From an uncultured Clostridia bacterium (GTDB taxonomy: Bacteria > Bacillota > Clostridia > Christensenellales > UBA1242): 64,000 bases of DNA. The notes under the pieces were generated by a model. It ran no database searches. It was not told the DNA's origin and was given only the letters and a program-made list of their open reading frames with translations. Positions 1 to 63,687 of this stretch are shown piece after piece. Numbering within the stretch: position 1 is the first letter of the stretch; every line of letters starts with the position of its first letter. The stretch is taken from positions 93,825 to 157,824 of the forward strand of contig CAKVLR010000002.1 of assembly GCA_934757855.1 (NCBI GenBank), read 5' to 3'. The translations under genes and the position numbers were made by a program.

Positions 1-1210
<1,210 letters not shown>

Positions 1211-1820: not shown

Positions 1821-2492
1821 ATGAAAATCTCGAAATCTTGGTACGAACTATTAAAACCCGAATTTGAAAAGCCATATTACAAGGAATTGCAAGCATTTTT
1901 GGCTGATGAGTACTCACACTACACTATTTACCCTACTCCTGACAATGTATTTAACGCGTTAAACTTAGTGCCGTACGACAAAGTGCGCGTAGTTATCATT
2001 GGTCAAGACCCTTACCACGCACCAAATCAAGCACACGGGCTTAGTTTTTCCGTACAAAAAGGTGTAGATATTCCGCCTAGCCTGCAAAATATTTACAAAG
2101 AAATTCAAAATGACTTGGGCTATCCTATTCCAACAACTGGCGACCTGACCAGTTGGGCAAAACAAGGCGTTCTGCTACTCAACTCAGTGCTTACCGTGCG
2201 TGCAGGTCTTGCAAATTCGCATAGAGGACACGGCTGGGAGCAATTTACAAGCGCGATTATTAGATTACTTTCCGAGCGCAATACGCCTATTATTTTTATG
2301 TTATGGGGAAACAATGCGAAAGCACTAGCAAAAGAAGTAGATACAAGCAAACATTTCATTCTCACAGCGCCTCACCCTAGCCCACTTTCTGCGTATTCTG
2401 GCTTTTTTGGTTGCAAGCATTTCAGCAAATGCAATGAGTTTTTAAAATCTATCGGCTCTACGCCTATTGACTGGCATATTAAATCTAACTAG
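1821..2492 (+). CDS. ung: Uracil-DNA glycosylase (family 1)
   Basis: 223 aa with the UDG family 1 motifs VVIIGQDPYH and HPSPLSA. Length is typical. Confidence 0.93.
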   Translation: MKISKSWYELLKPEFEKPYYKELQAFLADEYSHYTIYPTPDNVFNALNLVPYDKVRVVIIGQDPYHAPNQAHGLSFSVQKGVDIPPSLQNIYKEIQNDLGYPIPTTGDLTSWAKQGVLLLNSVLTVRAGLANSHRGHGWEQFTSAIIRLLSERNTPIIFMLWGNNAKALAKEVDTSKHFILTAPHPSPLSAYSGFFGCKHFSKCNEFLKSIGSTPIDWHIKSN

Positions 2493-2590
2493 AAATACTG
2501 AGAGACTACCCCTTGAAGTACCATTAGGTACGGAAGTCTGGCAGAACACGGCGGTCAAGTAGAATAGTGAGAAATTAGCCAGCAATATAT

Positions 2591-2674
2591 AGAGATTGCC
2601 ACCCCCCCTTACAGGGGTTCGCAATGACAAAAAGCAGAGATTGCCACGGTCGTTGCACTCCCTCGCAATGACAA
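2591..2674 (+). repeat. Two tandem ~40-nt units with conserved 12-nt flanks and a variable centre, in the ung 3' region
   Basis: Unit 1 is 2591-2630 and unit 2 is 2636-2674. Both read AGAGATTGCCAC-(15-16 nt)-TCGCAATGACAA. ATTGC/GCAAT can pair, and the unit 1 centre CCCCT-tac-AGGGG is itself a hairpin. Confidence 0.85.
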
Positions 2675-2685
2675 GTTGAAAAGAA

Positions 2686-2727
2686 AAAAGACATACTGAA
2701 TAAACTCAATATGTCTTTTCTTATTTT
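2686..2727. terminator. Bidirectional intrinsic terminator between ung and the convergent 2729-3613 gene
   Basis: AAAAGACATA (2686-2695) pairs with TATGTCTTTT (2710-2719) across a 14-nt loop. T-runs follow on both strands. Confidence 0.75.
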
Positions 2728-2728
2728 A

Positions 2729-3613
2729 CTATCTTTGTTGTTCTGACTCAAATTCAGCTTCATCAGGAGCGTAACCAATCACAATGTCATCATAAACATC
2801 GTATTCTTTGTTGTTGATTTTCTTTTTCTCAGGTTTTACCTCATCATCAAGGTTTATATCAATCACAGCCTCATCTGTTTTTCCGCCTTTAAAAGGGTCA
2901 GAAGCAAGCGCTTCTGCCTTTTTCTCTGCTTCAACACGCGCACGCTCTTTTTCCATTCGTTCGCGCTCCGCACCCACTTTTTGCCAAATCTCATCTTGAA
3001 CTATGTCACTTTCGGCAGATAAAATTCGTTTTTGCAACTTATAGCCCCAAGATGCCCTATCTTGAGCGTGGCGCAAAGCCTGCCTTGACACGATTTCTTT
3101 TGCATCATCAAGTGACAATTCAGGCGCAACAAACTCACTCTTTAATGCCAAAGCGCCCTTTTCGATATATTTCTCAGGGTTTGACCAAATGTGATATTTT
3201 AGCAATTTATTTAATTTTTTATTTGCTTCTTTGCTCTTGATTATATTGCTTCTTCTACAATGTAAAAACGAAGCAACAAAGCAACCAGCAATTACCACTG
3301 GCGCGCCGTAAATAGTGCCACCTAAAGCAACATTAACCAACAGCATATTGTTTACTTCAAATGCGTAATTGATTACATTATCTAAAATTTGCCCTTCAAG
3401 CATACCCAACGGATTTCGCATATAAAATGAAGCAAGACTAACAGAAGCAAGAGAGCCTAATACCAAATCCGCTTTCATCCAACGGCGATTGCGGTTACTT
3501 TTTAATTTTTGCAAACCTAACGCTTTATGAACATTGCGCAAAGGTTTAATTTCCTCTTTTGAAGGAGTCTTTACGCTCGGTTGAAAAATCTTTAAGTCAC
3601 TATTTTTTGACAT
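2729..3613 (-). CDS. Hypothetical membrane protein with an acidic, coiled-coil-like C-terminal half
   Basis: 294-aa ORF with a GAGGTG RBS 7 nt upstream of the ATG. Hydrophobic segments lie in the first half. No family recognised. Confidence 0.6.
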   Translation of the reverse strand: MSKNSDLKIFQPSVKTPSKEEIKPLRNVHKALGLQKLKSNRNRRWMKADLVLGSLASVSLASFYMRNPLGMLEGQILDNVINYAFEVNNMLLVNVALGGTIYGAPVVIAGCFVASFLHCRRSNIIKSKEANKKLNKLLKYHIWSNPEKYIEKGALALKSEFVAPELSLDDAKEIVSRQALRHAQDRASWGYKLQKRILSAESDIVQDEIWQKVGAERERMEKERARVEAEKKAEALASDPFKGGKTDEAVIDINLDDEVKPEKKKINNKEYDVYDDIVIGYAPDEAEFESEQQR

Positions 3614-4966: not shown

Positions 4967-5551
4967 TTACTTAAAACGCACTTCACTAATACCATCACCT
5001 ATATGGTAGATATTAGTGTTCAGCGTTTCATTTGTGGTAATTTTTGTGATAAAATCACGCATTTTTGCCACTGTACGCTCAAATCTAGGTTCGCTTATCG
5101 GCTTGCCATCTAACACCATTCCGCGAAAAAGCACATTATCGGACACCCAAACTCCGTTTTTCTCTAATAATGGCAAAATCATATCTACCATATCAACATA
5201 AGTCCCTTTTGGCCCGTCCAAAAATATTAAATCAAATTTTCTACCCAAAAGAGTTGGCAAAGTTTTTAGGCAATCGCCTTCAATAATTTCTACACGCGAA
5301 ATTAAGCCTAATTTTTCAAAATTCTCTTTTGCCAACTTAATATTTGGTTTACTTATTTCCAAACAACACAAATTTGCATTGCACTGCCTTAGCATACAAG
5401 CCCCCGAATAGCCTATCGCCATTCCAATTTCTAATATATTTTTGGGCTGTGTGTCCTTGCAAAGTTTTTCCAAATATTCACGGCTCTCACGCAACACAAC
5501 AGGGATTTTCCTCGCGCGAGCGTAAACTTCCATTTCATCTAAATAATCCAT
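4967..5551 (-). CDS. trmR: Class I SAM-dependent O-methyltransferase (YrrM/TrmR-like)
   Basis: 194 aa. SAM-binding ILEIGMAIGYS and FDLIFLDG motifs of the caffeoyl-CoA O-methyltransferase-like family. Synteny with the U32 peptidase. Confidence 0.6.
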   Translation of the reverse strand: MDYLDEMEVYARARKIPVVLRESREYLEKLCKDTQPKNILEIGMAIGYSGACMLRQCNANLCCLEISKPNIKLAKENFEKLGLISRVEIIEGDCLKTLPTLLGRKFDLIFLDGPKGTYVDMVDMILPLLEKNGVWVSDNVLFRGMVLDGKPISEPRFERTVAKMRDFITKITTNETLNTNIYHIGDGISEVRFK

Positions 5552-8411: not shown

Positions 8412-9227
8412 TTAAAATTTCACGAACAAACGGCGTTTGTCGTAGCGTTTTATATCGTTAAACTCACAAAAAACAATCATTCCCAAGATACATTCGATAG
8501 GCAAGAAAATAAGTAGCCCCAAAATATTGCCAAGCCAAACAATTTTTAGCAAAGTGCAAATTGCGATAATCACAAACACAGTCACACACAACACTGCTTC
8601 AACAAGTAAAATTTGCCAAACATTGCGTGAAATTGCGTGTGTCGCATCTGAAAATGAAACATTTAGTGGCGAACCGTTTATCATCATACCTATACAAGTT
8701 TGAATAAATAATGTAAACGCACGCATAATCAAAAACATTCCCAAAATCAGCACGATATAATTAAATATTGCACTAAACACATTGCCTACCCCATTTTTTG
8801 CACACAAGAAATGTACAAAAAACATAAGTAGCATCATAACTAGATTGATAATGTAGGCAACAACTGCAAGAATTGCCACAACTTTTAACACACTCAGCAC
8901 ATTGCTGTTTAGGCTAAATCCGTTGACTACTGAGGGCTTGCCCGTTTTGAAGTGTCTTTCGATAAAGCCTAGGAATAGGCTCATTGACACAACCAACAAA
9001 ACTAAACCTAGTATTATCCACAACACATCAAGCCAACCTATCCCATATACCGCGGTATAAAATTGTCCAAAATTCATCAAAGTGTAATTTGGATATTCCA
9101 CCACAAATTGAAACAATGAAAAAGGCTTTAGGAGCGCACCTATAAAAATTGCAGGCGCGACACAAAAAATCACTACATAAATGAAATTTTTGCAATAATA
9201 ATTTAAGATATCTTTTAGATAATTCAT
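8412..9227 (-). CDS. Polytopic membrane protein, unknown function
   Basis: Multi-TM ORF. I prefer the internal ATG at 9227 (GGGGT 8 nt upstream) over the ORF-track start at 9248, which has no RBS. The start is uncertain. Confidence 0.55.
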   Translation of the reverse strand: MNYLKDILNYYCKNFIYVVIFCVAPAIFIGALLKPFSLFQFVVEYPNYTLMNFGQFYTAVYGIGWLDVLWIILGLVLLVVSMSLFLGFIERHFKTGKPSVVNGFSLNSNVLSVLKVVAILAVVAYIINLVMMLLMFFVHFLCAKNGVGNVFSAIFNYIVLILGMFLIMRAFTLFIQTCIGMMINGSPLNVSFSDATHAISRNVWQILLVEAVLCVTVFVIIAICTLLKIVWLGNILGLLIFLPIECILGMIVFCEFNDIKRYDKRRLFVKF

Positions 9228-9383
9228 AATTTTACCCCATTTCCGCATAGATAAAACGCAAATTTACAAACCAAAACTAACAAAATCTGCCGACTTTTCT
9301 CCCACGGCTATTAGATTTTTATACATTAATATAATATAGATAGGGTCATAAAAACCCAAAATTAATCCTAACTTATTGATTTC

Positions 9384-9412
9384 ATTATATCATATAATTT
9401 ATATTAAATCAA
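9384..9412 (-). promoter_or_regulatory. Sigma-A-type promoter for the membrane-protein/rnj operon
   Basis: The minus strand reads TTGATT (revcomp of 9407-9412), a 17-nt spacer, then TATAAT (revcomp of 9384-9389). Confidence 0.65.
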
Positions 9413-9432
9413 GTGTTTAGTATAAATTCTAC

Positions 9433-9466
9433 CAAAACAAAAAAGAGAGGCAAACTTGCCCCTCTC
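9433..9466 (-). terminator. Intrinsic terminator closing the phage-like cluster
   Basis: The minus strand reads GAGAGGGGCAAGTTTGCCTCTC followed by TTTTTTGTTTT, 20 nt after the holin stop. Confidence 0.75.
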
Positions 9467-9485
9467 GAAAATTGTTAACAAAAAA

Positions 9486-9902
9486 CTAATTGTTAGCATC
9501 AATTTTTGCGAAACCTTCTAGCACCTCTCTACGCACCTCATAAATAGGTTTTACATCATAATTTTTAGCAACATTATCAGCATTTTGACTATCTGTGCAA
9601 TCGCTTTTAGTTTCGTTTTCTACTTTTTCTTGCTCAACAACAAAATTTTCTTGCTTTACTTGATTTTCTTGTTCCATTTGTTCCTCTTTTTCCATATTAT
9701 TTATCAAATTTTGTGCAGGGTGCGTAATTATCCCTAACACAACAAACACACCCAGCACACTATTTACAATCGACATATAAATTTCTTCATTAATTACCAG
9801 CCCCAACGGCTTGCCTACTGCTTGCACAAGTAGCAAAACAGCACTCGCTAGCGACACCCAGAAACTGTAATTTTTGAGTCGATTTTTTAATTTTACGCTC
9901 AT
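9486..9902 (-). CDS. Holin, phi-LC3-like family, with a long acidic C-terminal tail
   Basis: The N-terminus LKNRLKNYSFWVSLASAVLLLVQAVG plus a second TM (VLGVFVVLGIITHP) matches my recollection of the phi-LC3/TIGR01598 holin pattern. It is the last gene of the phage-like cluster. Confidence 0.6.
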   Translation of the reverse strand: MSVKLKNRLKNYSFWVSLASAVLLLVQAVGKPLGLVINEEIYMSIVNSVLGVFVVLGIITHPAQNLINNMEKEEQMEQENQVKQENFVVEQEKVENETKSDCTDSQNADNVAKNYDVKPIYEVRREVLEGFAKIDANN

Positions 9903-9903
9903 A

Positions 9904-10836
9904 CTATTTCTCCGATTTTATTTTATAAACCTTACGGGTAGCAAAATCAATCGCAGTCTTGTACCAATCACCAATTTGAGCGTGAATTTCTGGGTCGTTT
10001 AAAATCTCAAACGCCTCGCGCTTGGTTAAATCTTGCATTTTTTCTAACAAATACATCATTTTTTCGTGTTGCTTATCTGCCGAAATTTTTGAATTAGCGC
10101 TCTCATTCATTTTTTCCCAATTTTTCAAAACCTTAGCGCGTTGCTCACTGATACGCTCGTTGTATTTCTCCGCATCTGATTGAGTTTTGAGATACTTTTC
10201 ATTAAGTTCATCAACTTTCTTTTCCAACTCGCTAGCATATTTAATATCAAATTTATCAAGTGCCACTTGAAATTCATTTTCTACGATACTACGCTTCAAT
10301 GAAATTTCCGCGAGTTTGCGATTTGCTTCATTCAGTGAGTTTTGCAATTCATAATCAATGCGGTCTTGCACACCTTGCTGACCATTAAAAGCAATACTGC
10401 TCGATTGAACACCGTTTGCAATATTTTGCGCTTGATTTGTTGCCAAACCTGATTGCAAATTTTGAGCATATTGATATTTTGAGTTTTCCAAATCTTGATT
10501 TACTTTTTCAGTTTGAAGTTTAATATTTTCAATATCAATATCGCGTTCACGATTAATTTTATCTATATTTGATTTTCGATAATCTTCTAACGCCCCACTT
10601 GCAACAACTTTCATCTCTCGCTCACTAGGCACATTTGAATTGATATAGTCCAGCCCCTCATAAATTTCATCAGGGTTAGGAGTTAAATATTTCCCCTCAT
10701 ATTCTTTGTCAATTTTTCGCAACCCCTCTCTTACCGCTTCAATATCATTTTCGGTAATTGTTTTAGGCGCATTGGTAGATTGTCCTTCCGTATTTTCATT
10801 TTGAACCTGTTTTTGTTCCTCTATTTCCAATGACAT
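9904..10836 (-). CDS. Phage-cluster protein, coiled-coil rich, unknown function
   Basis: The ORF ends 1 nt before the holin start. The ATG at 10836 has a GGAGGTG RBS 6 nt upstream, whereas the ORF-track start at 10851 lies inside that RBS. No lysin motifs recognised. Confidence 0.55.
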   Translation of the reverse strand: MSLEIEEQKQVQNENTEGQSTNAPKTITENDIEAVREGLRKIDKEYEGKYLTPNPDEIYEGLDYINSNVPSEREMKVVASGALEDYRKSNIDKINRERDIDIENIKLQTEKVNQDLENSKYQYAQNLQSGLATNQAQNIANGVQSSSIAFNGQQGVQDRIDYELQNSLNEANRKLAEISLKRSIVENEFQVALDKFDIKYASELEKKVDELNEKYLKTQSDAEKYNERISEQRAKVLKNWEKMNESANSKISADKQHEKMMYLLEKMQDLTKREAFEILNDPEIHAQIGDWYKTAIDFATRKVYKIKSEK

Positions 10837-10950
10837 AACAGCCACCTCCATATCTTAAATATTTATTTTTCTTAATTAACTTAATACTTTCCATAACCTT
10901 AATCTTACTTGTATAAATTTTACAACACCCCCGTTTTGACACGGAATTTA

Positions 10951-11010
10951 TAGTACTATGCTAGGTACTATGCATAGGTATTATGCATTGCATAGTACTG
11001 CATAGTACCT
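10951..11010. repeat. Nested palindromic array of the GGTACTATGCA subrepeat (2 forward and 2 reverse copies plus 1 degenerate)
   Basis: Copies are GTACTATGC 10953-10961, GGTACTATGCA 10964-10974, TGCATAGTAC 10989-10998 and TGCATAGTACC 10999-11009. 10964-11009 is a near-perfect palindrome. Confidence 0.9.
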
Positions 11011-11513
11011 CAATTTTTCACAAAAGAAAATTCTCTCCCCACAATCAATAATGTCATTTTATGAAACACTGCTTGGTCTGCCGTACCCGTATAGGTATAA
11101 ACACCTATATTAGAAGTTCCCGTTGAATTAGTAAAGTAGCCAGCCGTTCGAAGCGAATTGCTCCCTTTTATACTTTTACTTTCATAACCATTTCTAGCGC
11201 TATTAACATAAAGCGTAGAAGTAACTGACATTTTTGCGGAAGTAGTAACATCAGAAAACAAACATACCATTATGTACTCATTAGGTGGAAATGAAATTGC
11301 CCCTAAAAGACTATACTTTTCCGCAATAGAGTTTGAAGTAAAACCGTCATAGTCATATCTTTCAATTTTGACTTCATTTTCACCCAAACTTGTATCACTT
11401 GAATTGCTATTTTTACTTTCTAATACTTCCAATCTTTCAAGCAACAACTCAACTTTATCATCTAGTTCTTTTGCTAGTTTATAACCCTTTTTACCTTCAT
11501 CTTCAAATATCAT
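11010..11513 (-). CDS. Phage-cluster protein with an N-terminal coiled coil and a beta-rich C-terminal domain (possible fibre or receptor-binding protein)
   Basis: 167 aa with a GGAG RBS. The function is guessed only from position after the 497-aa ORF and from composition. Confidence 0.45.
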   Translation of the reverse strand: MIFEDEGKKGYKLAKELDDKVELLLERLEVLESKNSNSSDTSLGENEVKIERYDYDGFTSNSIAEKYSLLGAISFPPNEYIMVCLFSDVTTSAKMSVTSTLYVNSARNGYESKSIKGSNSLRTAGYFTNSTGTSNIGVYTYTGTADQAVFHKMTLLIVGREFSFVKN

Positions 11514-11522
11514 AGTTTTCTC

Positions 11523-13016
11523 CTAACACAATGCAATTTCTAACACTGGATTTGAAATTTCGCAAGTATCAGCAGTTGATTTTATAGTAATGCTAAATTT
11601 ATTGGCAATTACATTTATCGGTATACGGACAGTGGTATCACTCCCCTTCCCTTTAAATGTATATTTCTTGCCATTCGCGTTAATTTCCAAAATAATATCA
11701 GTTTTTGTATCAATATACAAAGATTTTATTACTTTTTTGTAAGTAGGATAGCCCATATCGGTAAATGGAGAGTCCCAAATTTTTTGAGTAGCCACTCCAT
11801 AAACCTTACCATCGTGCGTAACTTCACTAACGATATTACATTTTTCACCATTACTACATACTACCAATTTTGAATAATCACCCGTTTGAAATGCTGTCAA
11901 TCTACTAATATCAACGCCACGCAAAATATTTAACTCACCAGTATTTACATCAAATTCTAGCAGTGTATTATTAATATAAGTCGTGCTTTCACAACCAATA
12001 GTCCTACTATCATCATAGTTTAATTTGCAAGCCACATAATATTTACCAGCCAAAAATGCACCTACCGCGTTAGAGTTATCCACATTTTCAAAATATTTAT
12101 CTAACCCAAGTTGCAATTTTGTCATATCACCGCCATCAAAATAGTACAATCCATCTTTACACATCATCATTATGATTTTTCCGCACAAAACTGCAGTGTT
12201 GTGGTAAATTTTCCCCGTGGATAAGTACATATTTTTTACATTAAAATTACTTTGCAACCCCCAACCAGACACTCGCGTAATGCCAAAATCGCGTATTACA
12301 TACAAGTAATTATTTGATTCAACCACCTTTTTAAGTGGCCCGCGCTCATCAGTAAGTTCAATATAACCGCCATCAAATTCGCTAACTTTCCACGAAGTTG
12401 GGTCTAGGTCATCACTAAACCACAACTGACTTTGGTCGCCACCAGTTGTCGCAAACAACCTCCCCGCGTGTAGAGCAACTGAAGTAATTGACGGCACATT
12501 ATCAGTATATAAATGTCGCGTAGCCGTACTATAAACACCAATTATATTCGGCACACAACAAAGGAAACTATCTGTACCCTTTATCCTATAATTTACGCCC
12601 GCTGGTTCAACATTAAATGTTAACCCTGTATCTAAGTACAAATCTTCATAAGTAGATACACGCCAATAATACAATTTTTTATCATCGCAATAAATCATTA
12701 AATATGGTGAAAATCTTTTTCCAGCATTATCATAACGCCTAAAAAGCCACGCATTGATGATTTTTGTTACGCCTTCGGGTGTAGGTATTGACCTAGGCAC
12801 TCCCACAAGGTCTGGCATTTCCAAAACTTTTAACCCCAATCCCTCTTTCAGCGCACCCGAACTATAACTATAATTAAATGTGTTTACGGCATAATTTAGA
12901 GGTAAGATATTTTCACTTACTTTTGTATTGATACCTTTCGAAAAGTCACTCAATTTTACCTTTAATAAAGATTTATTGTTATTTGGTAATTTTTCAGTGT
13001 AAAACACTAAATCCAC
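11523..13016 (-). CDS. Phage-cluster structural protein, 497 aa (possible short-tail or nozzle component)
   Basis: Large beta-rich ORF downstream of the capsid/adaptor-sized genes. GTG start overlaps the upstream gene by 10 nt. Function inferred from position only. Confidence 0.5.
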   Translation of the reverse strand: MDLVFYTEKLPNNNKSLLKVKLSDFSKGINTKVSENILPLNYAVNTFNYSYSSGALKEGLGLKVLEMPDLVGVPRSIPTPEGVTKIINAWLFRRYDNAGKRFSPYLMIYCDDKKLYYWRVSTYEDLYLDTGLTFNVEPAGVNYRIKGTDSFLCCVPNIIGVYSTATRHLYTDNVPSITSVALHAGRLFATTGGDQSQLWFSDDLDPTSWKVSEFDGGYIELTDERGPLKKVVESNNYLYVIRDFGITRVSGWGLQSNFNVKNMYLSTGKIYHNTAVLCGKIIMMMCKDGLYYFDGGDMTKLQLGLDKYFENVDNSNAVGAFLAGKYYVACKLNYDDSRTIGCESTTYINNTLLEFDVNTGELNILRGVDISRLTAFQTGDYSKLVVCSNGEKCNIVSEVTHDGKVYGVATQKIWDSPFTDMGYPTYKKVIKSLYIDTKTDIILEINANGKKYTFKGKGSDTTVRIPINVIANKFSITIKSTADTCEISNPVLEIALC

Positions 13017-13576
13017 CGCCTTTTTTTGACAGTTTTCATAGATTTTGGGCTATTTCGCATCAAAATTGCACGCTCAAACATTACTTCCCACGCATCAGCA
13101 TCACTAAACATACCACTCATTAAATAATATCGACTAACCACCCCGATAGCAAAGAGCCTTTTTGAAACTTTATCTACCGCAATCTCGACTGAATCGGTAA
13201 AATTTGCAGAATATTGAGGCAAATATGTATAAATTACGCGTAATTTGCCATTTTTTGCTTCAAAATATGTAGGAAAAATAGAAAAATCAACATCATAACC
13301 GCGTTCATCTACTATTTTTAGAATATCTAAAACGGGTTTAGTTAGCGTGCTAAACTGCACTTTATCGTTAGAATTTGTGATAATTTCTTCATATTTTAAC
13401 GGAAAATACATAGTTGCCAAACTTTGAGTAACATCATTTACACAAGTAAGTAGTAGATTTAACTTTTCCGCTTGTTGGTCAGTTGCTGTTTCCGTTCCGC
13501 CTAATTGAGTTGTATCTTTTAGTGCGGTATCGCCTAAATATTCAGCAACTAGTGCAAGCACTTCCTTTACAGTCAT
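13007..13576 (-). CDS. Phage-cluster protein (possible head-tail adaptor)
   Basis: ATG at 13576 preceded by GGAGAG. The position after the capsid genes suggests a connector role. No motif recognised. Confidence 0.45.
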   Translation of the reverse strand: MTVKEVLALVAEYLGDTALKDTTQLGGTETATDQQAEKLNLLLTCVNDVTQSLATMYFPLKYEEIITNSNDKVQFSTLTKPVLDILKIVDERGYDVDFSIFPTYFEAKNGKLRVIYTYLPQYSANFTDSVEIAVDKVSKRLFAIGVVSRYYLMSGMFSDADAWEVMFERAILMRNSPKSMKTVKKRRWI

Positions 13577-13587
13577 AATCTCTCCTT

Positions 13588-13968
13588 TTATACCCATTCA
13601 GTTGAATAACTATCTTTAAAATCACAGTCATCAACTTTATTTTTGGCATAATTAAACATTTCTCGCGCTTTCCAAGAAGCCTTGTCCAATACTTTATTTT
13701 TTTGGTCCAACTCCAATTTTTCATTGTGAGCAGTGATTTCTGCAATAATATTTTGCATATTTTCAATACGCGTTTTGCGCAATTTATTTATCACATTGAA
13801 ATTTAAGCCATTGTCGCATACTATGCAAAAAGTATTTGTTTTTTGCGATTTATTGTGTATTTCATAACGATTTTTGGTGGTATTATACACTGCATAGTAC
13901 CCTTTGTCTATTTTTTTAATGCGCTCTACAATATTAAAAGCGTCCGATTTGATTTTGATTAATGCCAT
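13588..13968 (-). CDS. Phage-cluster hypothetical protein, 126 aa
   Basis: ORF tightly packed after capsid paralog B. It contains two copies of the dispersed subrepeat (13819-13827 and 13891-13901). Confidence 0.5.
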   Translation of the reverse strand: MALIKIKSDAFNIVERIKKIDKGYYAVYNTTKNRYEIHNKSQKTNTFCIVCDNGLNFNVINKLRKTRIENMQNIIAEITAHNEKLELDQKNKVLDKASWKAREMFNYAKNKVDDCDFKDSYSTEWV

Positions 13969-13977
13969 ATTTTACTC

Positions 13978-15156
13978 CTAGTTAGTAACAGTAAGTTTTA
14001 ATACTCTGTTTGGTCTATCGCAAATTAAGTCGCAATATTTTACAAGTGTAGCGATATGCGTTGCATAATTTTCGCGTTGATGCAATACTTCACCTTTATT
14101 ATTTGACAACCAAGTCCAGTCGCATAATTGATGCAAATGGAACACGCTTGAATCAAGCAAGTAAGCAGAATTTTCAGGACAGAAACGAGTTGCAACCACA
14201 GGCACACCATTAAATGTAATAGTTTTGCTCCCTCCTGCCAAATTCATAACATCAGTATTGTAAGAACTTGCTTTTAGTTTGTCTTGCAATTTCCTACGGA
14301 AACTAAAACTACTAGTAATGAAATCCACATTTCCGTCATAATTTAACCTAATATCATCTATTAGTTGCATAAATTTAGGCATAGTGAATTGTGCAGTAGT
14401 CAAACTTGTTGTACTACCTGTCATATAAGAAACAGTCGAACGGTCTATGCCATAAAGTGTTGTGATAGTAGAATCACAAATACCAGCAAGACCTATAAAT
14501 TCCTTTCCTTTTGAATTTGTTAAATAAATAGAAATTTTCGTTTCATCTTCGTATTTTTCTGGAATTACAGTGCTTAATGTAATAACAGAATCTTTGTCAT
14601 CAACATCGACAATTTCTACATTTTTCAATTCAGGCATAAGTGTACCTGTTGAATCATACACATCTACACGCATACCGATTGCACCAACCGAACCTTCTGC
14701 AAGTTTTAGACTAGCCTCACCTGGTGTAAAAGTGTCCGAAGTGCCAAGCAACCCTGTACCGTTGCTATACAACATTCTCCTAAAATTGAATTTACTTGAT
14801 TCAATTAGATTTTCCATCTCTGCATTTAATAAATTTAAGAAAGCACCCGCCTCATCACGACTAGCGCGAATCGCCTTATCACTAATCTCAATAGTACCGT
14901 AAAGGTTTTTGAGTTTAGAAGTAAGAGTTGCGTAAGAATTTTCTTTTGCAGTTGGCAAAGCACCTATTTCAGTACCCGCGCCAATACCGCCGTTAATTCC
15001 AAGCGGAATCATTTTTTTAATCTCATTTCCTGCAACACTTTGAGTGGTTTGCTCAATTTTTGCAAAAAATGGGTCGACCGCGTTTTTTAGTTGGTCGGTT
15101 ATTACTTCTAGATAAACATTTTTCAATGCATTATCCGCAGTTGACAATGAAATCAT
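13978..15156 (-). CDS. Major capsid protein paralog B (392 aa)
   Basis: Collinear similarity to the upstream 392-aa ORF along the whole length (GINGGIGAG, LKNLYG.IEI.DKAIRAS, HQLCDW.WL, ATLVKY.DLIC.RPN). Its position after the scaffold-like gene fits a capsid protein. Confidence 0.6.
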   Translation of the reverse strand: MISLSTADNALKNVYLEVITDQLKNAVDPFFAKIEQTTQSVAGNEIKKMIPLGINGGIGAGTEIGALPTAKENSYATLTSKLKNLYGTIEISDKAIRASRDEAGAFLNLLNAEMENLIESSKFNFRRMLYSNGTGLLGTSDTFTPGEASLKLAEGSVGAIGMRVDVYDSTGTLMPELKNVEIVDVDDKDSVITLSTVIPEKYEDETKISIYLTNSKGKEFIGLAGICDSTITTLYGIDRSTVSYMTGSTTSLTTAQFTMPKFMQLIDDIRLNYDGNVDFITSSFSFRRKLQDKLKASSYNTDVMNLAGGSKTITFNGVPVVATRFCPENSAYLLDSSVFHLHQLCDWTWLSNNKGEVLHQRENYATHIATLVKYCDLICDRPNRVLKLTVTN

Positions 15157-15175
15157 ATTAATTTTTACCTCCCCA

Positions 15176-16354
15176 TTATAAATTGTAAATTAATGCTTGC
15201 GCATTTGGTCTGTTACAAATTAAGTCAGCGTACTTAACCAAAGTAGCACTGTAAGTAGCATAACCTTCTTTTTGTTTCAAAATTGAGCCATCGTTGTGAG
15301 TCAACCATTCCCAGTCGCATAATTGATGCAAAGTAAACATATCAGTATTGAGTAACATAATGTTGCTAGTGGTTTCAAATCTATTTCTCAAAACTGGAAT
15401 ACCGCAGAATGATACGCTCGTAAAGCCACCTTTTAGGTTAGTGCTATCCAAGTTTTTAGCATATCCAGAAAGCATACCCATAATTGTGTACACAATGTCA
15501 CCACCACACAAAATTACATTTGGTTGGTAGTTTGACTTCATTTCTACTTCATCAATTAATTTTTGGATAAAAGTTTCATTAAATGTGTCGCTGGTGTTTT
15601 TTGCGTATTTTATAGGCATCAAATTTTGATAATTTGCTCTATTTAAGCCATAAAGTGTAGTGCTACTACCAAAAATTGCGCCAAGACCAGTCAATTCTCT
15701 GTCTTTACTGCCCTGAATGTAAACTTTGTATTTTGAAATATTAGCAGTGGTAAAAGTAGATGAAACTGTACTCAAAGTTATCTTTTTGTTACTTCTATCC
15801 ACTTTTACAACTTCCACACCAGACATATTTGCATCTAATAGGTCACTACTGTAAAAGTCAAGTAGCATACCCTCCATAAATACTGTTGCATTTGAAACGG
15901 TCATTGTTTTGTTTGTTGCATCAATCGCAGTGATTGAGCCACCCAAACTTCCTGTACCATCTCCATAAAACATACGACCCAAGTTAAATTTACTTGCTTG
16001 CAATAATCCGTCCATTTCAGCAGTCAACAAGTTTACAAACGCGCCCTCATCATTTTCTGATGCACGAATTGCTTTATCAGTTATCTCAATTTTACCATAA
16101 AGGTTTTTAAGAGAAGTCGTAAAACTTGCATACTTGCTTTCACGACTGGTTGGCAAAGCGCCGTCCTCATCACCAGCGCCTATACCTCCATTAATTCCAT
16201 ACGGAACAAGTTTAATAATGTTTCTACCATAAACATCAGCCGAACTTTGTTTAATCATATTAAAAATAGGGTCAACCTGAGTGTTCAACTGATTGCTCAA
16301 TGCTTCCAAATACACGGTTTTTAGTGCATTTTGTGCATTACTTAATGTAATCAT
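15176..16354 (-). CDS. Major capsid protein paralog A (392 aa)
   Basis: First ORF after the scaffold-like gene, with size and composition typical of capsid proteins. It is a paralog of 13978-15156. Confidence 0.6.
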   Translation of the reverse strand: MITLSNAQNALKTVYLEALSNQLNTQVDPIFNMIKQSSADVYGRNIIKLVPYGINGGIGAGDEDGALPTSRESKYASFTTSLKNLYGKIEITDKAIRASENDEGAFVNLLTAEMDGLLQASKFNLGRMFYGDGTGSLGGSITAIDATNKTMTVSNATVFMEGMLLDFYSSDLLDANMSGVEVVKVDRSNKKITLSTVSSTFTTANISKYKVYIQGSKDRELTGLGAIFGSSTTLYGLNRANYQNLMPIKYAKNTSDTFNETFIQKLIDEVEMKSNYQPNVILCGGDIVYTIMGMLSGYAKNLDSTNLKGGFTSVSFCGIPVLRNRFETTSNIMLLNTDMFTLHQLCDWEWLTHNDGSILKQKEGYATYSATLVKYADLICNRPNAQALIYNL

Positions 16355-16364
16355 ATTTTATCTC

Positions 16365-17210
16365 CTATTTAAAAAAATTTTTTGCCAGTTCTCTTGCCTC
16401 TGCCATATTTTGCACAGTTTTATGCACTTCGGCGCTATATTGTGCGCCCTCGGCTTTTGCAATAACTGACGGTGCAGACTTGTGAGTCTTAACTCTATTT
16501 AGGTAATCATTTACAATCAAATTGTATATTTTTTGATTATTTAAAGCACTTTTTGCAATAAAATCATCGTTTATATCTATTTTTTGCTCCTTTTTTTGCA
16601 AAATTTTGACCCAAGAGTTTAACAAAGGGGCTTCGCTACTTTGCACAGCCTTGTCTTTGACTAGCATTTCCGCTATCTCTTTTGAATGATTTTTTGCATC
16701 GGGAAATTCCTCAAAAAATTTATTTACCTTTTCGTTCCAGTCCGCACTTTCCCATATTTTGGTAACGCTTTTGGGGGCTTGCGCCTTGTCCAAATTTTCA
16801 TCAGGGGTAATTTGTACCTTATCTGATGAGCCGTTTTCTTCAATTTTAGAGACAACCTCTCCTTCATTTACAGAAGAAATCTCTTGTCTAAAATCGTTTA
16901 AATCATCATTTTTTTGTGAATTTTCTTCATTTTGAGTGTTAATTGGGGTATTTTCGCTTGATTTTGCGCATAGTTCTGCCTTGTTTTCGGCGTTTTCAGG
17001 TTCAGCGTTAGTTTTTGAGATATTTTCATCGCTATTTTGCATATTTTTCTTCATTTTTGCCAATTCCATAGCATTTTTGGTAAAACAACTTCTCAAACTA
17101 TCGTAGGCATCTTTAAGCGTTTTTACCGACTTGAATGTTCCTAAATCAGTACCATCATTTTTTAACTCCCCCTCAAAAGAAGGCAATTCAAAAGGTAATT
17201 TTTCTTCCAT
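16365..17210 (-). CDS. Scaffold-like protein (acidic, low complexity)
   Basis: 281 aa, E/N/K-rich and predicted helical, located between the portal and capsid genes. Confidence 0.4.
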   Translation of the reverse strand: MEEKLPFELPSFEGELKNDGTDLGTFKSVKTLKDAYDSLRSCFTKNAMELAKMKKNMQNSDENISKTNAEPENAENKAELCAKSSENTPINTQNEENSQKNDDLNDFRQEISSVNEGEVVSKIEENGSSDKVQITPDENLDKAQAPKSVTKIWESADWNEKVNKFFEEFPDAKNHSKEIAEMLVKDKAVQSSEAPLLNSWVKILQKKEQKIDINDDFIAKSALNNQKIYNLIVNDYLNRVKTHKSAPSVIAKAEGAQYSAEVHKTVQNMAEARELAKNFFK

Positions 17211-17221
17211 TTCCCTAACTC

Positions 17222-19138
17222 CTATTTTTCAATATTATTGTTACTTTCGGCAAGCAAAGTTAATTTTTTAAATTGCTTGTGCTTGCGAATATGTGCTAAC
17301 ATTTTGTCACGAATTTCAGGTTTTTCGCGTGAAATTTTATCAAATTCTCCACTTAACATAAAAGCAATGTGAGCATTGATATGCAAATCGTGGTCGTGAA
17401 TTTCCATAACCTCAGGTTCTTTTCCGTCCAAAAATTCTATATTCTCACGCTTCGCTTTTTCAAGTTGTAGATTATTGTTATCAAGTGCATCTTCCCAAAT
17501 ACCAAATCCCAACAACTCCAAAATTTTTAGCCTCATCGCATTTGACAACTTGCCATTTTCATCGTGTAGTAACCCAGCATTTAGTAAATCAAAAATCATA
17601 CTGCGCTTTTGAGCGACTGTTTCGCCGAGTTCTGTTTCCGTTTCAAACACTACATCATCAGTAGTAATCGCACGATTGTCCCAGTAAAATAATTTACTTG
17701 TTCCGTTTTCACCTACTAATTTACTCATTCTCTGCGCATTTACAAATTGCTTGTATAAACGCAAAATTTGAATACCTATTTCTTTAATTGCAAATTTTAT
17801 GTACTCACCACTTGATGAAATTCTCATATCTTCTTGCTCCATTAAAATTTGCAACGCAACACCACTCATATTTGAAATTGCGCTTGCGTTTGAACCGAAT
17901 AAATCACTTACGCCACTGATATTTAAAAATTCATTTAGCAATCTTTCTTCTTCATCTCTAAAATCAGAAGGCAAAGATGCGTTCGACATAAATTGAGGAG
18001 CGCGTGAACCTTGTCTATAAACCAAAATTTTCCCTGGGCTTAAACCTTCTTCTTCCAAATTATCAATATCGACAGAGCCGTCCTCAACGCTTACTATCCC
18101 CATACAAAGTCTATTCATAAATTCGTGTTTACGGTTTTTGATTGCGTTGTAGGCGCGTTGAACAGGAATAGAGCGTTCAACTATACTTGTACCCCAAAAT
18201 AACGAAGGTTGTCCAACACTAATTTGTCGAATAAACGGAAAACCGCGTTCGCCATTTTGCAAATTTTTGTAAGGCAATTCCCCATCATAGAGCAATTTAT
18301 CGCCAGCAATAATTACAAGCCTACCATCAGGGCGGTCTTTTGTCGGCATTTCGTAGCGTTCGATAACCATAGCGTGGTCGTGTTTTATCGTTTTTGTCAT
18401 TTTTGCAGATTTGCTAGCATATCCCAGACCACCCGCTACTTGCGAATTTGATAAATTATATGTATCAATATCTTCACCTTTAACCGTTACGCCCCAGTGT
18501 TTTTTAATTGTTTCCACATGGTAGGCACGAGCGTGAATTAGACTGCGACAACTATCTAGTGACTCACACGAATTGCTATCAGGGTAAATTTCAAATGGTG
18601 AACATACGATAACATCGACATCACCCTCAAAAATCTTTTCACCCAAAGTCGTTAGCCCAACCACGGAGCCTGCACTATCGTTCCATACTACCTTGTAAAA
18701 ACTCGTTCCACAAATTTCACTCCATTTGGTCGCTTGCGAAACCAATTCGCTAAGTTCAAGTTTTGAAGATACTGAATCTAAAATATCTTTACAAATATGT
18801 GCATTGCTTACATCATCTTCATCACCACTCGCAGGCAACACTGTCATAGTCGGACGGACTTTCGCCAATTTGGAAAGCCTTGTTTCCACCAACGGTGCTA
18901 TATGATTGTAAACTTCTCGTTCTTGCCAAAAATACTGCTTGTCAAAATCATCAAGCGTATCATTTGAACCAATCCCACAATACTGATTGCCCATAACAAA
19001 ATTGATATTTAATTGCCATTGAGCATCAAATGGTCGGCGCTCCTCTTGCCTTCGCTCAAAATCTTTTTTAATTTCACCGACCAGTTCTCTTTCTGCTAAA
19101 TTTTTAGATTTTTGCGCATTTTTTTGCGTATTTTGCAT
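17222..19138 (-). CDS. Portal protein (candidate)
   Basis: 638 aa with a GGAG RBS. Size and position between the terminase genes and the scaffold/capsid genes are those of a portal. The family was not identified by motif. Confidence 0.6.
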   Translation of the reverse strand: MQNTQKNAQKSKNLAERELVGEIKKDFERRQEERRPFDAQWQLNINFVMGNQYCGIGSNDTLDDFDKQYFWQEREVYNHIAPLVETRLSKLAKVRPTMTVLPASGDEDDVSNAHICKDILDSVSSKLELSELVSQATKWSEICGTSFYKVVWNDSAGSVVGLTTLGEKIFEGDVDVIVCSPFEIYPDSNSCESLDSCRSLIHARAYHVETIKKHWGVTVKGEDIDTYNLSNSQVAGGLGYASKSAKMTKTIKHDHAMVIERYEMPTKDRPDGRLVIIAGDKLLYDGELPYKNLQNGERGFPFIRQISVGQPSLFWGTSIVERSIPVQRAYNAIKNRKHEFMNRLCMGIVSVEDGSVDIDNLEEEGLSPGKILVYRQGSRAPQFMSNASLPSDFRDEEERLLNEFLNISGVSDLFGSNASAISNMSGVALQILMEQEDMRISSSGEYIKFAIKEIGIQILRLYKQFVNAQRMSKLVGENGTSKLFYWDNRAITTDDVVFETETELGETVAQKRSMIFDLLNAGLLHDENGKLSNAMRLKILELLGFGIWEDALDNNNLQLEKAKRENIEFLDGKEPEVMEIHDHDLHINAHIAFMLSGEFDKISREKPEIRDKMLAHIRKHKQFKKLTLLAESNNNIEK

Positions 19139-19152
19139 AAATTTTCTCCTTT

Positions 19153-19341
19153 TTAAGCATTAAATTTACTTTTTACCGATTTAGGGACCAAGTTTTTCCC
19201 TAAATTTTCATAGAGGTCACGAGCGCATTTTTCACACAAGCAAACCGAATACTTGCTAAAATTTATCTTGTATTTAGGTGCGTTCGTACACCCAACATCG
19301 CCCGCGCATTTTACCTTTCGAGTTTGAATAGTTAGTTGCAT
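19153..19341 (-). CDS. Small Cys-rich (zinc-ribbon-like) phage-cluster protein, 62 aa
   Basis: ATG at 19341 with an AGGAGGTG RBS. The ORF-track start at 19404 overlaps the upstream gene. Cysteine pattern is C-x5-C ... C-x-C-x2-C. Confidence 0.5.
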   Translation of the reverse strand: MQLTIQTRKVKCAGDVGCTNAPKYKINFSKYSVCLCEKCARDLYENLGKNLVPKSVKSKFNA

Positions 19342-19342
19342 A

Positions 19343-19633
19343 CTACACCTCCTTTTTGATTTGTTGCAAGATTTCAGCGCGCATTTTTTGCAATTCTTCA
19401 TCACTAAAATCGCGCAAATTATTCATATTCGTATCAAAACATCGTTCCAGCAAAGCGCGGGCAGCGTTTATATCAGGAGGAATATGTTTTTTTGTTACCT
19501 TTTTTTTGATTAATTTTAAATCTTCGCCCCCAGTACCCCCCGCATATTCCTCCACAACCTCATCGACCGTGTAGCCCATTGCTTTTTTCAATAAAGATTT
19601 TGCTAATTTTTCCGTTTCATTTTCGTTTTTCAA
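19343..19633 (-). CDS. Small phage-cluster protein, weakly TerS-like
   Basis: 96 aa. AMGYTVDEVVEE...KKVTKKHIPPDINAARALLE resembles the C-terminal pattern I recall from Firmicute-phage small terminases. It lies downstream of TerL rather than upstream. Confidence 0.35.
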   Translation of the reverse strand: MKNENETEKLAKSLLKKAMGYTVDEVVEEYAGGTGGEDLKLIKKKVTKKHIPPDINAARALLERCFDTNMNNLRDFSDEELQKMRAEILQQIKKEV

Positions 19634-19634
19634 C

Positions 19635-21083: not shown

Positions 21084-21204
21084 CTCTCCAAATCAACTAA
21101 AATTTATATTTTTCGCTAATTTATGGTTTAAAATTCATAAAAAAACCAATAATTGCATATGGAAATTTCTTCCTAATTTGGTAAAATACTACAAGGAGTC
21201 GGTT

Positions 21205-22045: not shown

Positions 22046-22092
22046 CTAGGTACTATGCAATGTACTATGCAGTATTTTTTAGATACTATGCA
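22046..22092. repeat. Three direct copies of the (G)GTACTATGCA subrepeat, overlapping the stop codon of the regulator gene
   Basis: Copies are GGTACTATGCA 22049-22059, GTACTATGCA 22062-22071 and ATACTATGCA 22083-22092. CTAGGTACTATGCA (22046-22059) is identical to 10961-10974. Confidence 0.9.
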
Positions 22093-22637: not shown

Positions 22638-22892
22638 TTTTTTACCTCCCAATCGCTTCGACAAAATTTGACAAATTTCGCCAATTTTTGCCCTTACGAA
22701 AACTACTATATATTACGATTGTTCGATTTGTCAATATGTTGTGACAGGTTTTTTGAATATTTTTGAAAATTTTTGTAAATTATTCAAAAATCATTCCTTT
22801 TTGTTATTATCGAACTTATGTTCTAGTATAATTATAAATTCTTGACACCTAGCGTACATATTTACAAATTAATAAAAAATTCTTTTATTTTG

Positions 22893-34354: not shown

Positions 34355-34399
34355 AAACTATGCGCAAAACTACTTGCATACCACATTGCATAGTACCTA
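34355..34399. repeat. Degenerate plus intact copies of the dispersed subrepeat in a convergent intergenic region
   Basis: AAACTATGCGCAAAA (34355-34369) is identical to 28575-28589. ACATTGCATAGTACCTA (34383-34399) is the revcomp of 22047-22063. Confidence 0.85.
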
Positions 34400-34469
34400 A
34401 AATTTAATTTTAGTTGGGCAATCTAACTAATTTTACCAAACAAAAAAAAGTTGCTTTTAATTAGCAACT

Positions 34470-41289: not shown

Positions 41290-42123
41290 ATGCAAAACAA
41301 ATTGAGTCTAGTTATTGATAGTGCAGTGTTATTTGTGGGTGTAGGCGTGCTTATATTTTCGTGGGTACGGTTTTACACAAAATCAATCACTCTAAGCCTT
41401 GTCGCAGGAGCAATAATTGCGGGTATGATTTTGCTTAGTTTTATATATATTTATAACAAACGAAACGCAAAACAAACCCTCAAAAAAGCCGAGCAAAAGC
41501 AATTTGAGCAATTAAAATTCAACTTGTTTTTTACCCCAAAAGCGCAAACTCTTGACTACTTTGCTTCTATATTGGGAAAAACTAAACATATTGAAAAGCA
41601 CAGCGATTTCCTTATTTTAAGAGAGAACTCTGCGCAAAAGGATACGCATAGTACATTGCATAGTACCATATTCTTTGCTTTTTTTGATAAAGAAAAACTA
41701 GACTTTGCGACTTTTCTTACCTTTTACCGCATAGCAGTAATTAATAACCTTGATGATATAATTATTTGCGCAAATGCTTTTGAAGAAGATGTAAAATGTA
41801 ACGCAAGTAGAATAAGGAATATCCGCACGACCCTACTTCCGCTCACTCAATTTTTCAAAGAAAATCAACCCGCAATTACCGCCGACCCTTTCCCTATTGT
41901 CGCCGACACCTTAAAGCCAAAACTCAGCAGAAACGAGATTTTGCGTTACGCATTTTCACCAGCACGCGCGCGAAATTATCTATTGTTTGGACTTATGATT
42001 TTGCTTACCAGTTTTTTAGTACCGTTCAAAATTTATTATTTGATTATGGGTAGTTTACTTTGTCTAACCGCCCTTTTGGTACGAGTTGTTCCTTTACTAA
42101 AAAAAACAATAAAAAAAGCCTAG
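41290..42123 (+). CDS. Membrane protein, unknown function, containing an in-frame copy pair of the dispersed subrepeat
   Basis: 277 aa with N- and C-terminal TM segments. 41644-41667 encodes ..THSTLHST.. and is the revcomp of the 22-nt block at 22049-22070. Confidence 0.6.
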   Translation: MQNKLSLVIDSAVLFVGVGVLIFSWVRFYTKSITLSLVAGAIIAGMILLSFIYIYNKRNAKQTLKKAEQKQFEQLKFNLFFTPKAQTLDYFASILGKTKHIEKHSDFLILRENSAQKDTHSTLHSTIFFAFFDKEKLDFATFLTFYRIAVINNLDDIIICANAFEEDVKCNASRIRNIRTTLLPLTQFFKENQPAITADPFPIVADTLKPKLSRNEILRYAFSPARARNYLLFGLMILLTSFLVPFKIYYLIMGSLLCLTALLVRVVPLLKKTIKKA

Positions 42124-44538: not shown

Positions 44539-44583
44539 GAATAAAAAATAAGTACTATGCACAAATTTTCATTGCATAGTACC
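44539..44583 (-). terminator. Intrinsic terminator of the spoIIA operon whose stem is built from the dispersed subrepeat
   Basis: The minus strand reads GGTACTATGCA-atgaaaatttg-TGCATAGTAC followed by TTATTTTTTATT, 22 nt after the sigF stop. A third copy lies at 44585-44593. Confidence 0.75.
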
Positions 44584-44604
44584 TTGCATAGTATTATTTT
44601 TGAC

Positions 44605-63597: not shown

Positions 63598-63641
63598 CTT
63601 AAAAAATAAATACTATGCAATGCATAATACATTGCATAGTA
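63598..63641 (-). terminator. Intrinsic terminator built from an inverted pair of the dispersed subrepeat
   Basis: TACTATGCAATG (63611-63622) and CATTGCATAGTA (63630-63641) are a perfect 12-bp inverted repeat with a 7-nt loop. On the minus strand it is followed by TTTATTTTTT, 47 nt after the upstream stop. Confidence 0.7.
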
Positions 63642-63687
63642 CTATATTTTACTGTTTATTATCATAAATTTAATATTTTTAAATAGT

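Follow-up and report, generated by a model that had tools for sequence, protein, structure and literature searches.

What is the nested palindrome at positions 10951-11009 of a 64,000-nt stretch from an uncultured Clostridia bacterium (assembly GCA_934757855.1, contig CAKVLR010000002.1; the whole stretch is called the window below), placed between a 167-aa gene and the last genes of a phage-like cluster? The initial annotation had singled it out as the densest copy of a dispersed repeat and compared it with repetitive extragenic palindromes and bacterial interspersed mosaic elements (REP/BIME), or with arrays of protein-binding sites such as operators, iterons or recombination sites. We found that the element is one array of a clade-shared family of 10-bp boxes and not a control element specific to the cluster. 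Arrays of protein-binding sites appears to be the best general description, and we favour, tentatively and at slightly less than even odds, the reading that the arrays are cooperative protein-recognition sites with secondary roles as hairpins or terminators.

In an unbiased k-mer scan, GTACTATGCA (reverse form TGCATAGTAC) ranked first among the 10-mers of the window, with 11 occurrences against 0.10 expected. We call this 10-bp unit the box, GTACTATGCA being its forward and TGCATAGTAC its reverse orientation. The dispersed core is strongly non-random: with at most one mismatch allowed, GGTACTATGCA matches the window 13 times, where 0.77 matches are expected, and a count of 13 was reached by 0 of 100 dinucleotide-preserving shuffles. 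Altogether the window holds about 20 boxes in seven arrays (Table 1). All seven loci listed in the initial annotation are present, whereas some copy numbers had to be changed: site 1 has five boxes rather than four and site 7 three rather than two. The pair assigned to 13819-13901 lies instead at 13880-13900. There, a degenerate forward box (GTATTATACA) and an exact reverse box stand at the canonical 11-nt offset, and this pair is kept in an orthologous locus (L066), in which the nearby box 13818-13827 is lost via synonymous changes; the latter box is probably due to chance. Across 193 copies, box positions 1-8 are near-invariant. GTATTATGCA is a common variant; another, AACTnTGCGCAAAA, occurs as the left-hand box and has ACTATGC in common with the forward box.

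Only groups of at least two boxes count. All 11 exact boxes of the window have a neighbouring box, and lone boxes with one mismatch are about as frequent as expected by chance (one box-like match, at 231-240, falls by chance within the 16S rRNA gene). Head-to-tail pairs keep a 12-bp register, sometimes 10-13 bp; direct 12-nt spacing was counted 64 times, about 52 of these being dictated by the pattern used to find loci outside the window. Head-to-head pairs at an 11-nt offset (GTACTATGCA-T-TGCATAGTAC) occur nine times and forward-reverse pairs within 45 nt 15 times, against a single tail-to-tail (reverse-forward) pair within the same distance. A recurrent composite consists of the left box AACTnTGCGCAAAA, 6-7 arbitrary nucleotides and two reverse boxes. 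It is found at sites 4 and 5, in a relaxed form at site 6, and at about 12 independent loci elsewhere (20 when orthologues are counted), and in these independent copies the box positions and the 6-7-nt spacing are fixed and the spacer sequences unrelated. The left box alone is also in excess within the window, with 25 matches at up to two mismatches against 7.15 expected. Such matches (e.g. 16962, 28576, 34356, 39362, 41626 and 56535) are often without reverse boxes and lie both inside coding sequences (CDSs) and right behind gene ends, for instance 13 nt past a gyrA-type gene.

The family extends beyond the window. We scanned one genome per species for the tandem dimer GCATAGTACNTTGCATAGTA; the loci found by this pattern (most of the L numbers below) were seen as 8-kb pieces of metagenome-assembled genomes (MAGs). 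The dimer was detected at 64 loci. About 30 MAG species account for about 52 of these; they carry the label uncultured Clostridia or Christensenella, and their GC contents span 27-52%. Three of these loci are orthologues of the window at 93-95% identity. Others are syntenic with it at about 65-75% nucleotide identity; at the protein level, Obg is 68-74% identical, SigF 73-80%, the membrane protein that carries site 5 about 40% and the DUF7934 protein (L053) 36%. Arrays occupy orthologous positions at site 1 (L066/L067: forward, reverse, reverse, reverse; L053: forward, forward, reverse, reverse), site 5 (L015 and L042), site 6 (in the corresponding intergenic gap of L013; box positions are identical in L027) and site 7 (L025 and L031). 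Box number and orientation thus vary between orthologous arrays of species with 36-80% protein identity. Array density is about one per 9-27 kb. Arrays were also seen at the very ends of short MAG contigs (L026, 3901-3933; L027, 2913-2956; L033, 8-44). They probably break short-read assemblies, so the array counts from MAGs are lower bounds.

The genes beside the arrays are a cross-section of housekeeping functions. A cell-wall regulon, as suggested by the neighbours murD, murG, glmS, alr, Mur ligases and penicillin-binding proteins, was rejected since the neighbours span many unrelated functions of this kind. About 12 matches fell in other phyla (SAR11, cyanobacteria, Saccharibacteria, Dehalococcoidia) and reduce to about 7-8 independent loci; by our own estimate (19-nt pattern, 1.2e12 positions), about four are expected by chance. 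We treated these matches as unrelated or as independent tandem duplications. No match for two box patterns or for the site-1 sequence was found among 2.9 million viral contigs and the GenBank phages; with its assorted neighbours, this marks the family as one of the host. A literature search for the box sequence returned unrelated primer matches only, with no description of the motif, and Rfam gave no family at any array in the window and 12 loci. The window has no tRNA or tmRNA gene.

The boxes are conserved where the surrounding DNA is not. Between the window and a relative with 94-95% identity, 0 of 60 box positions changed, compared with 14 of 103 neighbouring intergenic positions (Fisher p = 0.001), and no array was present in one and absent from the other over the 16 kb aligned. 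At site 3, the comparison with L032 gave 0 changes at 30 box positions and 10 at surrounding intergenic positions. In murD of four species, one of which has 48% GC, no position of the left box or of the two reverse boxes varies, third codon positions included, whereas in the flanks only about 38% of the aligned columns are invariant. The gene carrying site 5 shows the same in three species (window, L015 and L042, with proteins about 40% identical), its boxes forming invariant islands that include third codon positions. Across genes, the boxes are translated in three reading frames (Table 1), and because identical boxes occur in all three, selection acts on them at the DNA level and not at the protein level.

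Were the copies then inserted as ready-made elements? The initial annotation had held them to be homologous rather than convergent, citing exact reverse-complement identities between 22049-22070 and 41646-41667, between 63611-63630 and 10978-10997, and between 22047-22063 and 34383-34399. These identities are correct, but they consist of boxes and 2-nt linkers only, so 17-22 nt of this kind do not by themselves show homology by duplication. Spacers and flanks are unrelated between copies. Compared with solved MurD structures, the 42-nt murD composite falls on residues that are homologous, among them those of the conserved "IV-x-SPG" strand, and contributes only about three extra ones; since it adds so little, this copy was built in place and not inserted. 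Unrelated spacers and flanks together with the murD overlay indicate that copies arise or are kept box by box, not as a 40-60-bp element. Miniature inverted-repeat transposable elements were rejected on similar grounds, there being no conserved interior and only about three residues added in murD.

Table 1. Coordinates and composition of the box arrays in the window, peptides encoded by boxes, and other features of the window (positions are those of the window)
Feature	Coordinates	Strand	Composition	Context
Site 1 (flagged copy)	10951..11009		five boxes: forward, forward, forward, reverse, reverse	nested palindrome 1 nt past the stop of 11010-11513(-), 101 nt upstream of 9904-10851(-)
Site 1 boxes	10953-10962, 10965-10974, 10978-10987, 10989-10998, 10999-11008		first box with 1 mismatch; third box variant GTATTATGCA	
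Site 2	13880..13900		head-to-head pair, encoding GYYAVYNT	inside CDS 13588-13968(-)
Site 3	22047..22092	+	three forward boxes: 22050, 22062, 22083	convergent gap between SH3-like gene (stop 22020, + strand) and regulator gene 22086-22664(-); overlaps the regulator stop codon
Site 4	34356..34397	+	composite: left box AACTATGCGCAAAA (34356-34369), 5-nt spacer, two reverse boxes	murG 3' region, upstream of bidirectional terminator 34447-34471
Site 4 reverse boxes	34375-34384, 34387-34396		first with 2 mismatches	
Site 5	41626..41667	+	composite: left box 41626-41639, reverse boxes at 41645 and 41657	within membrane-protein CDS 41290-42123(+), encoding NSAQKDTHSTLHST
Site 6	44551..44594		forward box 44552, 11-nt spacer, reverse boxes 44573 and 44585	starts 10 nt past the stop of sigF-like gene 44605-45327(-)
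Site 7	63610..63643		forward, reverse, reverse boxes at 63610, 63621, 63633	45 nt past the stop of PepSY gene 63688-63972(-)
Box-encoded peptides			murD: CIV, KLCAK; membrane protein: HST; Q/N-rich protein: TMQ; glmS: YYA, MHNT	
Box-encoded peptides			alr: YYA and TMH, 20 nt apart, in different frames	
Partial 16S rRNA	1-1210	-		window start
Phage-like cluster	8412-21083	-	TerL (19635-21083), TerS-like fragment, P22-like portal, two paralogous major head genes	
Phage-like cluster, further members		-	adaptor and virion proteins, DUF7934 protein, holin, two unannotated open reading frames downstream of holin	
Window genes			uracil-DNA glycosylase, U32 peptidase, RNase J, gyrB/gyrA-type topoisomerase genes, SSB, murG, ddl, Mur ligase	
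Window genes			tsaB/E, rsfS, yhbY, obg, nth, spoIIAA-spoIIAB-sigF operon, L1, L11, nusG, secE, fructose-bisphosphate aldolase	

A gain or loss of arrays at one orthologous coding site was noticed in a small Q/N-rich protein encoded at 47788-48351(+), three genes from the sigF operon and adjoined by a gene with a PucR-type helix-turn-helix. Its orthologues (L013, 1349-1888; L048, 1655-2065; L004, 5576-6001) carry three to five in-frame boxes (STMQGTMQ...CIVP), and since the window copy is without boxes, arrays have been gained or lost there.

The same observations bear on the proposed likeness to REP/BIME. REPINs, the inverted REP doublets linked to REP-associated tyrosine transposases (RAYTs), belong to a group whose discovery came through over-represented oligonucleotides (PMC3116915). 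If the family were a REP/REPIN-type repeat or some other tiny mobile sequence, with the inverted hairpin boxes as replicative unit and a RAYT-like or unknown enzyme to spread it, this would account for the extragenic bias behind stops, the mosaic arrays, the hairpin-forming inverted doublets (sites 1, 6 and 7), the arrays at extreme contig ends (L026, L027 and L033), as expected of assembly-breaking repeats, and the glmS arrays within an insertion. As in REP/BIME, short repeats lie behind stops and in convergent gaps, form mosaics of both orientations and, where inverted, make hairpins at operon ends. The REP/BIME-like bias behind stop codons was confirmed; membership was not supported. The unit here is 10 bp and not 20-40 bp, tandem boxes of the same orientation dominate, and many arrays are purely tandem, so that a hairpin is impossible; loops and spacers are not conserved between copies. 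Copies also lie inside CDSs, where they can overlay existing codons as in murD, and the box is unchanged over a far deeper clade (36-80% protein identity, GC 27-52%). A mobile element also fits poorly with the lack of any presence/absence difference over the 16 kb aligned with the close relative. No transposase, integrase or RAYT was seen among the annotated genes of the window, and no RAYT or transposase among the most frequent annotated neighbour families of the arrays. We consider a mobile repeat of this type quite unlikely.

Placement was tallied over 428 kb, with called open reading frames (ORFs) set against intergenic DNA. The density of arrays in intergenic DNA was 10.7x that in called ORFs. 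Of 44 convergent gaps, 14 had arrays, compared with 2 of the 44 divergent gaps (p = 0.002). Tabulated relative to stop codons, as the initial annotation had proposed, arrays in co-directional gaps are biased to just behind stops: the upstream stop is a median of 21 nt away and the next start 145 nt, and in 16 of 19 cases the stop is the closer of the two. A canonical bidirectional terminator adjoins many arrays, for example at site 4. Arrays would thus seem to persist only where promoters and protein function are undisturbed, a placement that fits both host-useful sites at operon ends, as proposed for REP/BIME, and tolerated sequences kept by drive. By eye, promoters (sigma-70, sigma-54 and sporulation sigma factors) were rejected, as spacings misfit and downstream -10-like hexamers are inconsistent between copies. 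A replication-polar motif such as KOPS, SRS or Chi was likewise rejected because dimer orientation relative to local GC skew is unbiased (27 vs 31).

Folding separates the head-to-head arrays from the rest. The former fold strongly (sites 1, 6 and 7), whereas arrays of tandem boxes only, such as site 3 and many of the outside loci, have no predicted hairpin (z ~0). The near-perfect nested palindrome described at 10964-11009, 1 nt past the stop of the 167-aa gene, is real; its minus-strand fold (10925-11015, 91 nt) reaches -33.3 kcal/mol and its plus-strand fold (10940-11030, 91 nt) -29 kcal/mol, with z-scores of -4.0 and -5.4 respectively, and it has no U-tract in the sense direction. A hairpin followed by a U-run on the sense strand of the upstream gene is present at sites 6 and 7 and absent at sites 1, 3, 4 and 5. 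At site 6, the inverted boxes form a 12-bp stem on the minus strand and UAUUUUUUAUU comes next, which makes a predicted intrinsic terminator for the spoIIAA-spoIIAB-sigF operon; at site 7 the minus-strand hairpin is followed by UUUAUUUUUU, also a predicted intrinsic terminator, here for the PepSY gene. Site 1, placed between two transcription units of the phage-like cluster, is most likely a 3'-end stabiliser or insulator besides being a putative binding array.

An element read at the RNA level, either a motif in 3' untranslated regions or mRNA for an RNA-binding protein or small RNA, or hairpins selected for termination or mRNA stability, would explain why arrays lie in transcribed 3' regions, why sites 6 and 7 make good predicted terminators and why, in our own tally, the left-box composite is in the sense orientation in 5 of 5 independent informative cases. 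Tandem dimers, in contrast, are 10 sense and 5 antisense to transcription by the same kind of tally, and direct arrays are without predicted structure. Site 6 reads forward-forward-reverse in the sense direction, compared with reverse-reverse-reverse at the orthologous L013, and left-box variants (ACTCTGC) are not compensated in the partner box. With no Rfam match either, an RNA-level function for the family is very improbable.

In their evolutionary behaviour, the arrays recall the DNA uptake sequences (DUS) of Neisseria and the uptake signal sequences (USS) of Pasteurellaceae. The arrays could be a DNA-transfer tag kept by molecular drive, that is, preferred sites for uptake or for initiation of packaging by a cluster resembling a gene transfer agent (GTA), with array alleles being transferred more often to relatives, so that arrays would build up at every place that tolerates them. 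The likeness to DUS/USS is broad: a motif of 9-12 nt there and a 10-mer here is over-represented on both strands, common to related species and present within CDSs, here in several frames (PMC1852404). Inverted DUS/USS pairs in Neisseria and Pasteurellaceae are enriched in tail-to-tail gaps, have a forward-reverse bias and are reused as terminators (PMC1852404), and our boxes share the enrichment in such gaps, the large excess of forward-reverse over reverse-forward pairs and the co-option as terminators. The absence of matches in the viral DNA searched would also fit. DUS/USS are however mostly single, about 1 per kb, with same-orientation neighbours rare (PMC1852404), whereas here single boxes are at chance level, groups of at least two and 12-bp tandem dimers are the norm, and the density of about one array per 9-27 kb is about 10x lower.

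On the packaging side, several species have the phage-like cluster in synteny, and its constraint there is like that of host genes. It has neither integrase nor replication genes, and GTA-like packaging has been reported for gut Christensenellaceae (PMC12946183). A podovirus-like GTA was described in Faecalibacterium in the same work. Known GTAs package without sequence specificity (PMC12946183). The terminase genes of the window have no array; a single degenerate box at 19337 is not kept in L066. Weighing these points, we regard the transfer tag as unlikely; that the arrays are a self-DNA tag tied to gene transfer, either packaging arrays for a vertically inherited podovirus-like cluster of the GTA type or sites of sequence-biased uptake, spreading over the core genome by a drive like that behind DUS/USS, seems rather unlikely. 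Small terminases typically bind phased repeat arrays. To our knowledge, no sequence-specific uptake is known in Firmicutes. If the arrays did turn out to be a gene-transfer tag, they would extend uptake- or pac-type genome tags beyond Proteobacteria for the first time, and no GTA before this one would have had its recognition sites dispersed.

In one outside locus (L058), a 538-aa polytopic membrane protein (744-2360) is encoded directly upstream of a 321-aa ORF (2414-3379) that by eye reads as a putative holA. This is the position that comEC has in Bacillus, and it would bear on uptake.

The phage-like cluster was the context in which the flagged copy had been noticed. The window is core chromosome, and the cluster lies beside RNase J, syntenically so in L066 (1-11333)/L067 and L053, in at least three other species, and is also found in L032. 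An ortholog search for the gene beside site 1 gave one short metagenome contig, and a protein search two matches, one of which yielded L066. The cluster portal is 94% identical between species, like the housekeeping genes, and at most 25.5% identical to any GenBank phage. Gene content and conservation make the cluster a candidate domesticated or GTA-like element, in line with the packaging reported for gut Christensenellaceae (PMC12946183).

Could the arrays be operators, iterons or recombination sites of this cluster, bound for instance by the product of the regulator gene 22086-22664(-)? That gene encodes a phage-type transcriptional regulator (phrog_36, E = 7e-11) and adjoins the cluster, which has three of the window's seven arrays within or next to it, and site 1 is kept in three other species. 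The concentration claimed in the initial annotation was not significant, three of seven arrays lying in 23% of the window (p = 0.20). The arrays are at 3' ends and not at cluster promoters: the stretch preceding TerL (21084-21204) and that preceding the regulator gene have no box. Unrelated housekeeping genes flank most arrays, both in the window and at the about 50 loci outside it, and with no neighbouring integrase, recombinase or replication gene the proposed iterons and recombination sites are left without a partner. Control sites of the cluster are therefore a highly improbable explanation for the family, and the suggested tie to the regulator was not supported. A secreted or anchored SH3-like protein is encoded by the ORF 20989-22020(+), which probably starts near 21205 with the signal peptide MRKYLYIF..., and converges on the regulator gene. 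Because of this convergence, the regulator is not directly upstream of TerL, and there is no small-terminase gene between them.

We return to cooperative protein recognition. Invariant boxes with free spacers, a requirement for at least two boxes, a fixed register and the exclusion of tail-to-tail pairs together lead us to infer a cooperative sequence-specific DNA-binding factor. The arrays would dock such a conserved factor, which would bind neighbouring boxes cooperatively as an oligomer. They would arise locally, through point changes and through units being duplicated or inverted, without the transposition of a preformed element, and would survive only where harmless, namely behind stops, in convergent gaps, next to intrinsic terminators and in protein stretches that tolerate them. 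Head-to-head arrays are in addition predicted to fold as hairpins, and those of sites 6 and 7 appear to have been taken into use as Rho-independent terminators. The factor might serve chromosome topology or organisation, as proposed for REP/BIME, or read a self-DNA tag. REP/BIME are bound by host proteins such as gyrase and IHF.

Several points weigh against this reading. The binding factor is hypothetical and deduced from the sequence pattern. A position at 3' ends is unusual for regulators and would suit a selfish or drive-maintained sequence, tolerated there and no more, equally well. The 12-bp class is inflated, as outside loci were ascertained by the tandem dimer. In glmS the array is part of a 26-residue loop that is inserted with respect to E. 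coli GlmS, and some arrays therefore also add DNA. Finally, L053 and L063 are unrelated loci with near-identical 47-nt arrays, for which copying or gene conversion could be the reason.

Among known binding systems, the closest mechanistic analogue appears to be the omega (ParB) protein of pSM19035, which binds weakly to one heptad and strongly to direct or inverted pairs (PMC9499535). Operators of omega and related ribbon-helix-helix proteins resemble the arrays in their short non-palindromic units of mixed orientation, and the allowed arrangements match those found here. The omega units, in contrast, are 7 bp, contiguous and in promoters of few plasmid genes, whereas ours are 10 bp in a 12-bp register, chromosomal, numerous and at gene ends. 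The sites of FapR, PlcR, TrpR, RTP/Ter and Rok were set aside since they share 5-7 nt only or need an arrangement that is avoided here.

Other small repeats offer partial parallels. Rickettsia palindromic elements lie in frame in protein genes as insertions of 100-150 bp, the small dispersed repeats of cyanobacteria are 21-27 nt with a conserved structure, and HIP1 is a single 8-bp palindrome, highly iterated and of unresolved function. All are small repeats in frame inside genes or very short, highly iterated words, but none is an array of 10-bp boxes with variable spacers. The box family belongs with the short interspersed recognition words. It is placed like REP elements, behaves in evolution like DUS and has a grammar resembling that of iterons, all in a Gram-positive gut clade.

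Genome-wide words kept by a clade (DUS/USS, REP, Chi, KOPS, HIP1) have each pointed to dedicated DNA machinery. The hosts here are abundant uncultured gut Clostridia, in which the boxes follow an unusual array grammar, override synonymous-site drift in essential genes and adjoin a conserved capsid-forming cluster of a type recently implicated in gut gene transfer. Once found, the factor that reads them would bring to light a nucleoid or topology system not seen before, or else a new step of self-recognition in horizontal transfer. For practical purposes, the box marks the clade and is a probable cause of MAG assembly breaks.

Among the matches in other phyla, a SAR11 single-cell genome (L057) has a near-identical 24-nt tandem dimer, TGCATAGTACGTTGCATAGTACGA, at 2233-2256 and 5169-5192, the second copy beginning TGTATAGTAC. 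As far as can be told, these dimers are separate from the Clostridia family. The two copies are 2.9 kb apart and bracket three ORFs of unknown function, and could be att-like direct repeats of a small island.

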